This document shows positions 54,150-54,740 of a stretch of DNA of 64,000 bases, one piece after another (within the stretch, counting starts at the first letter, position 1; the number at the start of each line of letters is the position of its first letter). The DNA is taken from NCBI RefSeq assembly GCF_056712565.1, contig NZ_CM160072.1; one strand, given 5' to 3'. The notes under the pieces are model-generated. The model had not been told where the DNA came from and did no database searches. It saw only the letters and a list, made by a program, of their open reading frames with translations. A program made the translations under genes and the position numbers.

Positions 54150-54740
54150 CTACTCGTAATAATTATAAATCCCTGCCGCCATCACCAGTTGTGATGCCAC
54201 TTCATGGGCTTTCTCGCGCCCAACCAGCAGGTCGATAATTTTCAGACCAAAGTCGATAGCTGTACCTGGCCCCTGGCTGGTCAGCAATTTTACCCGTGCA
54301 TCCCAGACGACGCGCTTGTCCTGCCATTGTTCGGCGGGTATTTTGTCTTTCAGCGTCGGGAAGCCGGTCATATTGCCAATCGGGAAGATATCGTGCGGGA
54401 CCAGCACGGTGGCTGGCGCGGCGCAAATAGCCGCGACGATACGCCCGGAACGGTGGAACTGTTTAACGGTTTCAACCAGCAGGGTGCTATCGCGAAAACA
54501 CTCTGCGCCTTTGATGCCACCAGGCAGCACAATCACGTCATATTCGCCATCAGCCACTTCAACCAGCGGCGCATCCGCCAGCAGCTTCACGCCGCGCGAG
54601 CAGGTAATCGCCAGGTTACCATCGCTGGCGACGCTGGCAGTGGTGACTTTGATACCGCCGCGAACCAAGAGGTCGATAGTGGTGACGGCTTCAGTCTCTT
54701 CACTACCAGGGGCGAGGCAAACCAGTGCCGATGCGCTCAT
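54150..54740 (-). CDS. yajL: DJ-1/PfpI family protein YajL (ThiJ)
   Basis: Start at 54740 gives [32 protein letters not shown]...; nucleophile-elbow Cys in AAICAAP. Confidence 0.92.

Follow-up and report, generated by a model that had tools for sequence, protein, structure and literature searches.

The genes panE and yajL are neighbours on the minus strand of the window, i.e. of the whole stretch of 64,000 nucleotides of contig NZ_CM160072.1 (RefSeq assembly GCF_056712565.1) that was analysed. The panE (apbA) gene of the vitamin B5 pathway, encoding the 2-dehydropantoate 2-reductase of 303 amino acids, covers positions 54703..55614, both in the list of open reading frames and in the RefSeq annotation of identical DNA. 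The yajL gene (formerly thiJ), which encodes a DJ-1-family protein of 196 amino acids, is annotated by RefSeq at 54150..54740. Direct reading of the sequence places the TAG stop codon of panE at 54705-54703 and the ATG start codon of yajL at 54740-54738, and the 38 nucleotides at 54703..54740 are read in both genes. An earlier note on this DNA had stated that the 3' end of panE and the 5' end of the co-oriented yajL gene share these 38 nucleotides, and the open reading frame list, the sequence and RefSeq confirm this to the base: in RefSeq, a strain with 100% identity throughout the query has the same two genes, annotated as 2-dehydropantoate 2-reductase (panE) and protein deglycase YajL (yajL), with identical limits and the same overlap. 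The source of the DNA is Escherichia coli, and a query of 1.6 kb (54100-55700) was found in 5,424 of the 5,426 complete genomes of this species, with full identity in several of them. The two gene names given in the note are also correct according to RefSeq and to the matches in the PDB: PanE matches 1YJQ/2OFP over its full length with one substitution (E = 8e-208), and residues 1-196 of YajL are matched by the YajL entries 2AB0/5SY4, again with one substitution. The latter concerns residue 141 (codon 54318-54320), which is Gln in the window and Leu in the crystallised E. coli protein (2AB0, 5SY4); this is a strain polymorphism.

The overlap extends on the panE side from the last two bases of the Tyr292 codon to Trp303 and the stop codon, and on the yajL side from Met1 to the first two bases of the Ser13 codon. 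The two frames differ by one base, the A of the ATG being position 2 of panE codon Tyr292. On the minus strand, the junction reads AAA AGA AAG GAG AGT GAA T/AT GAG CGC ATC GGC ACT GGT TTG CCT CGC CCC TGG TAG in the panE frame, with the slash at the beginning of the overlap, and ATG AGC GCA TCG GCA CTG GTT TGC CTC GCC CCT GGT AGT GAA in the yajL frame. The TAG codon of panE is directly followed by an in-frame back-up TGA codon at 54702-54700, so that the two stops occupy 54700..54705; both are formed by the yajL codons GGT-AGT-GAA (Gly12-Ser13-Glu14). A Shine-Dalgarno sequence, AAGGAG, is located at 54748..54753, 7 nucleotides upstream of the yajL ATG and within the panE codons Lys288-Glu289. 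Two codons upstream of the ATG there is an alternative in-frame GTG codon (54744..54746) that is probably unused, and a scan of the yajL frame identified a TAA stop codon at 54759..54761 that closes the open reading frame on the upstream side. The only starts that keep the conserved N-terminus of YajL are therefore the ATG at 54740 and the GTG at 54746, and due to the TAA codon any start that preserves this N-terminus falls inside panE.

As the sequence itself fixes the panE stop codon, the overlap stands or falls with the start of yajL. The ATG is also the codon best equipped for initiation. Its predicted duplex with the 3' end of the 16S rRNA has an energy of -9.1 kcal/mol, and all other in-frame ATG, GTG and TTG codons in the interval between 12 codons upstream and 140 codons downstream score -3.5 kcal/mol or weaker. 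In the protein that would start here, residues 1-13 comprise the conserved N-terminus and the first strand of the DJ-1 fold, residues 2-13 are covered by the alignment of homologues, and the first 30 residues are highly conserved, with 27 variants that are mostly exchanges between Val and Ile or between Ser and Gln and a beginning of MSASAL[VI]. Solved structures of the DJ-1 family align from YajL residue 1 or 2, and the crystal structures of YajL itself derive from recombinant constructs, which do not prove the native start. A search of the literature for direct N-terminal or start-site profiling data on YajL found none, and the text supplements of one N-terminomics paper (PMC13245402) contained no match for yajL, P31658 or the N-terminal peptide. 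Judged from sequence comparison and structural evidence, the start of yajL at the ATG at 54740 is well supported. The claim of the earlier note that yajL translation begins within panE is thus backed by the Shine-Dalgarno sequence, the pattern of selection described below, the homologues and the upstream TAA codon.

A single scan of a collection with one genome per species yielded 80 related loci, all from Enterobacteriaceae. The start codon of yajL was invariant in all of them, and the overlap was 38 nucleotides long in 67 and 41 nucleotides long in 12 of the 80 loci. In the latter form, the Gly12 codon of yajL differs at its third base, a silent exchange in YajL by which the TAG codon is lost and panE is extended by one codon to the TGA. 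At the remaining locus, L028 from Trabulsiella odontotermitis, the match to PanE is limited to residues 1-204, with the frame closing about 100 nucleotides short of yajL (panE region upstream of position 2501); this suggests that panE is frameshifted or disrupted in that assembly, and yajL and the junction sequence are intact. Given its retention in 79 of 80 loci, the overlap is beyond chance. Among the 79 distinct junction sequences, neither the ATG nor the GGA core of the Shine-Dalgarno sequence varied, and five of the six bases of AAGGAG were invariant, with the last G being a G in 73 and an A in six junctions. On the basis of these comparisons, panE and yajL are a genuine co-directional overlapping pair, i.e. 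as two real genes on one strand that are read in different frames and that have kept their overlap in the relatives.

Nucleotide diversity by codon position, determined with these 79 distinct junctions, served as the measure of selection. Where only one gene is encoded, the diversities at positions 1/2/3 are 0.13/0.09/0.43 in panE alone (150 nucleotides upstream) and 0.093/0.063/0.42 in yajL alone. Within the overlap, the values for the yajL positions are 0.076/0.042/0.284. The wobble position of panE, with a diversity of 0.52 over the 270 nucleotides upstream, is nearly frozen in the overlap (0.042; Mann-Whitney p = 2e-7), and positions 1 and 2 of yajL taken together are equally constrained in the overlap (0.059) and downstream of it (0.076). 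The frame under purifying selection thus changes from that of panE to that of yajL precisely at the ATG, and from there on the variation is distributed according to the yajL codons.

The part of PanE that is encoded in the overlap stands in clear contrast to the conserved beginning of YajL. When 24 PanE orthologues were aligned, the conserved core extended up to the invariant residue E289, and the tails beyond it differed both in length and in sequence. The chain in the first structure of E. coli PanE (1KS9) comprises only residues 1-291, and in an AlphaFold2 model based on this alignment the pLDDT, with a mean of 92, drops to a mean of 61 for residues 291-300 and to less than 50 for residues 298-303. 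Residues 292-303 thus form a peripheral, poorly conserved tail of 12 residues that is probably disordered. The earlier note had called the overlap substantial. This is a relative term: 38 nucleotides are long for a co-directional overlap in bacteria, and the cost to PanE is this poorly conserved tail. Taken together, the pair can serve as a textbook example of asymmetric dual coding, in which the sequence for a conserved strand at one N-terminus also encodes a presumably dispensable C-terminal tail. Even so, the tail is not wholly free. Of the ten wobble sites of yajL that fall in the overlap, three do not vary, as compared to none of 87 downstream, and the mean diversity at yajL wobble sites is 0.284 in the overlap versus 0.468 downstream (p = 0.03). 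The three invariant sites are the first bases of the PanE codons for Arg294, Gly/Asp298 and Trp303. Their invariance points either to weak selection or a function at residues such as Arg294 and Trp303, or to a constraint at the level of the mRNA near the start codon.

The panE-yajL pair is widespread in the Gammaproteobacteria, and beyond the Enterobacteriaceae the junction between the two genes takes several forms. Distant loci were obtained from representatives of clusters of YajL proteins at 50% identity by looking up the corresponding contigs, with organism names taken from the cluster members. In each of them, yajL is directly preceded by panE (ApbA family) or by a truncated open reading frame. 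The two genes are separated by 57 nucleotides in a gammaproteobacterial metagenome-assembled genome (L093), by 35 nucleotides in L085, where the upstream frame is a fragment of 31 codons of a putative panE, and by 17 nucleotides in L086; they overlap by 4 nucleotides (ATGA) in Vibrio mimicus (L089), by 32 nucleotides in Proteus mirabilis, by 38 or 41 nucleotides in the Enterobacteriaceae, and by 44 nucleotides in Rosenbergiella, where YajL has two extra codons. At the loci with a spacer, PanE stops just after the last conserved helix (…LYDAIKHAEQQ*), and a Shine-Dalgarno sequence of the AAGGAG type lies within the spacer. In the three families of Enterobacterales that were sampled, panE continues through the ribosome-binding site of yajL into yajL. 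The surroundings of the pair differ as well. In V. mimicus, the neighbourhood is unlike that in E. coli, with tsx upstream and sufE and a gene of the ThiF family downstream, and yajL overlaps the next gene, encoding a class-V aminotransferase, by 14 nucleotides (3093-3106 of L089). In P. mirabilis (L087/L088, 3289-4256), two extra genes are present between yajL and thiI; one belongs to the YafO toxin family, and the two may form a toxin-antitoxin pair.

The most likely origin of the overlap is an extension of the 3' end of panE into yajL, and we infer that this change, in this direction, would have occurred in an ancestor of the Enterobacterales. The elongation of the upstream gene at its 3' end is the commoner route to overlapping genes (PMC3887535). 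We also considered the simple loss of a stop codon from a Vibrio-like ATGA junction, and this was rejected: the overlaps of 4 and of 38 nucleotides are in different relative frames, and the change must therefore have included an indel or started from another ancestral spacer. Once established, the overlap would have been retained mainly by selection on YajL, with a weaker constraint contributed by a few residues of the PanE tail.

The panE and yajL genes are given as one operon on the basis of databases in three papers (PMC5634459, PMC12403712, PMC8743547). A simple and rather insensitive pattern scan of the minus strand detected no terminator-like or sigma-70-like site within or between the two genes. 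From the operon databases cited in these papers we infer that one transcript would cover panE and then yajL. On this transcript, yajL would be initiated mainly de novo by 30S subunits at its own strong and unstructured ribosome-binding site (AAGGAG, 7 nucleotides, AUG) within the final codons of panE; ribosomes that complete panE would read through this site and terminate 38 nucleotides further on at the TAG formed by the codons for Gly12 and Ser13. The Shine-Dalgarno sequence sits in an A-rich stretch, and the RNA around the yajL start (121 nucleotides) has no more predicted structure than its shuffled versions (z = +1.38), 187 of 200 of which reached an equal or better fold; this agrees with an independent ribosome-binding site that is accessible. 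Since there is no stable predicted structure that would hide the Shine-Dalgarno sequence, we dropped the idea that coupling by unfolding is the main explanation. The arrangement is best explained by a conserved overlap within one operon, in which yajL is started from its own ribosome-binding site and which arose by extension of panE at its 3' end; we assign a probability of about 0.9 to this reading.

Other explanations concern the position of the yajL start, the way it is reached by ribosomes, and the protein that results. The annotation might be an artefact, with a true start further downstream (the TTG at codon 25, 54668, a later GTG, or the ATG at codon 124) and two genes that do not overlap at all. 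Long overlaps are indeed less frequent than short ones, and some of them result from wrong annotation, a general point made in PMC10666635; in addition, 12 of the 80 sequences counted have an ATG at codon 25. The earlier note had named a downstream in-frame start as the case that would speak against it. We have examined this case, and the nearest candidate, the TTG at codon 25, has no Shine-Dalgarno sequence and is poorly kept: in 63 of the 80 sequences, this position is occupied by a codon that does not serve as a start (CTG, CTC, TTA or CTT). None of the downstream candidates is preceded by a Shine-Dalgarno sequence, with duplexes of -3.3 kcal/mol or weaker. Moreover, a downstream start would remove residues 2-24, which are aligned with the DJ-1 homologues and include the first strand as well as the conserved residues Glu14 and Glu17; the purifying selection on codons 2-13, equal to that on the remainder of yajL, speaks against such a loss, and the frozen panE wobble positions across the overlap would be unexplained if panE alone were read there. 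We regard a downstream start as extremely unlikely. The start might also lie two codons upstream of the ATG at the GTG at 54746, which would yield a protein beginning with MNMSAS and an overlap of 44 nucleotides. The GTG is the first start-like codon of the open reading frame, and a GTG or ATG is found at this position in 75 of the 80 sequences; an overlap of 44 nucleotides exists in Rosenbergiella, though it is owed to two extra codons after the ATG of that gene. Against this possibility, the Shine-Dalgarno sequence is separated from the GTG by just 1 nucleotide and the region upstream of the GTG forms a duplex of only -2.8 kcal/mol, five of the 80 sequences have ACA, GTA, ATT or ATA at this codon as compared to the invariant ATG, and the ATG is the start in RefSeq as well as in the PDB constructs. 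This makes initiation at the GTG very unlikely.

If the ATG is accepted as the start, translation of yajL might depend mainly on that of panE, either by ribosomes that step back 35 nucleotides after termination and reinitiate or by panE ribosomes that unfold the site. The two genes overlap and are part of one operon, overlapping pairs are often translationally coupled (PMC12548453), and the conservation of the overlap throughout the family could reflect selection for coupling. Yet efficient termination-reinitiation has been reported at distances of -4 and -1 nucleotides, within a range from about -8 to +6, with a steep fall with distance (PMC10666635), and at -38 panE and yajL lie outside this range. 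In addition, the start region has no predicted structure and thus offers nothing obvious to unfold, a Shine-Dalgarno sequence of this strength, ideally spaced, is sufficient to initiate translation de novo, and a strong Shine-Dalgarno sequence is also kept in relatives in which spacers of 17-57 nucleotides separate the genes. A main dependence of yajL on panE is unlikely for these reasons, and the same holds for termination-reinitiation as the main route to YajL, to which it may nevertheless contribute. It is tempting to speculate about a further role: the overlap might be more than a by-product of panE extension that is tolerated, namely a selected device that ties the output of YajL to the translation of PanE, with ribosomes on the last 12 codons of panE transiently blocking or opening the yajL ribosome-binding site and so fixing the ratio of PanE to YajL; the invariant residues Arg294 and Trp303 could also have a function of their own. 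The three invariant wobble sites out of ten in the overlap and the retention throughout the family are compatible with such a device and do not demonstrate it, and we consider it a doubtful proposition. If true, it would link the synthesis of a coenzyme A precursor to a damage-control enzyme of the DJ-1 type. Finally, a programmed frameshift at the overlap could fuse PanE to YajL. An element resembling a Shine-Dalgarno sequence followed by an open reading frame shifted by +1 loosely recalls prfB, and there are two over-long YajL-like database entries, P0001 (277 amino acids) and P0002 (221 amino acids). By eye, there is neither an X XXY YYZ heptamer nor a prfB-like CUU UGA motif, and no in-frame stop codon or rare codon is present at the point of the shift; furthermore, the ATG and Shine-Dalgarno sequence of yajL are conserved as an initiation site, and the relatives with spacers have stop codons between the genes. 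We regard a fusion by frameshifting as extremely unlikely. As to the two entries themselves, which exceed the 196 amino acids of YajL, both have a single member and one carries the name E. coli DJ-1 family glyoxalase III; alternative start calls or errors of assembly or annotation are the probable reason for their length.

The overlap between panE and yajL is already known: it is contained in the RefSeq annotation and has been published. In their genome-recoding study with BL21(DE3), Mukai et al. 2015 (Sci Rep 5:9699, PMC4434889, Fig. 1c) noted that panE runs into yajL and that altering the TAG codon of panE changes a Ser codon of yajL, and they worked around this problem by adding a Leu codon and a TGA stop codon. 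The genes and the geometry are the same as in the window, with the panE TAG inside the codon for Ser13 of YajL, and there is no difference of substance. The additions made here are modest: the frame-specific pattern of selection, the tie between the overlap and the non-conserved tail of PanE, and the series of junctions in the Gammaproteobacteria. With respect to overlapping genes in general, this overlap is longer than most, as more than 80% of the overlapping bacterial pairs share less than 30 bp (PMC12548453), and it is within the known range. Its length fits the long series of overlaps of -8, -11, -14 and so on ('phase 1', Huber et al. 2023, PMC10666635), since 38 = 8 + 30 is in the same phase, and phase 1 is several-fold more common among long overlaps (PMC10666635).

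Within the window, panE-yajL is the longest of seven overlaps between intact annotated genes. The second longest is formed by thiL and pgpA (47813-47835); these genes are likewise annotated as co-directional, share more than 20 nucleotides and encode unrelated enzymes, but their overlap is shorter, with 23 nucleotides. The cyoC and cyoB genes share 11 nucleotides (59749-59759), tauC/tauD and sbcC/sbcD overlap by 4 nucleotides each, and ispA/xseB as well as cyoD/cyoC by 1 nucleotide. The short overlaps of 4 or 1 nucleotides between start and stop codons (ATGA or TGATG), as in tauC/tauD, sbcC/sbcD and the panE/yajL pair of V. mimicus, follow the same operon logic, in which the downstream start lies in or touches the upstream gene. 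They differ from the E. coli panE/yajL junction, at which the start of yajL precedes the stop codon of panE by 35 nucleotides and the other relative frame is used.

The overlap has practical consequences for the manipulation of either gene. Any edit of the panE stop codon alters residue 13 of YajL, and a simple replacement of the TAG changes Ser13 to Asn or Asp (PMC4434889). Similarly, a deletion or insertion at the 3' end of panE can destroy the ribosome-binding site or the start codon of yajL. Since the ribosome-binding site of yajL is located inside panE, panE knockouts and insertions of IS elements may be polar on the DJ-1 homologue, and the position of the insertion matters. A recent case in point is the insertion of IS1 in panE in all human-associated isolates of Salmonella Dublin that were compared (PMC12403712, 2025), for which an effect on yajQ or yajL was considered. 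At the other end of yajL, a gap of 53 nucleotides separates it from the convergent thiI gene. This gap contains a perfect inverted repeat of 12 bp, AACGTCGCATCT-GGTC-AGATGCGACGTT, at positions 54108-54135. The repeat was not flagged by the simple terminator scan because the run of T residues is short; it is probably the hairpin of a bidirectional terminator shared by thiI and yajL.
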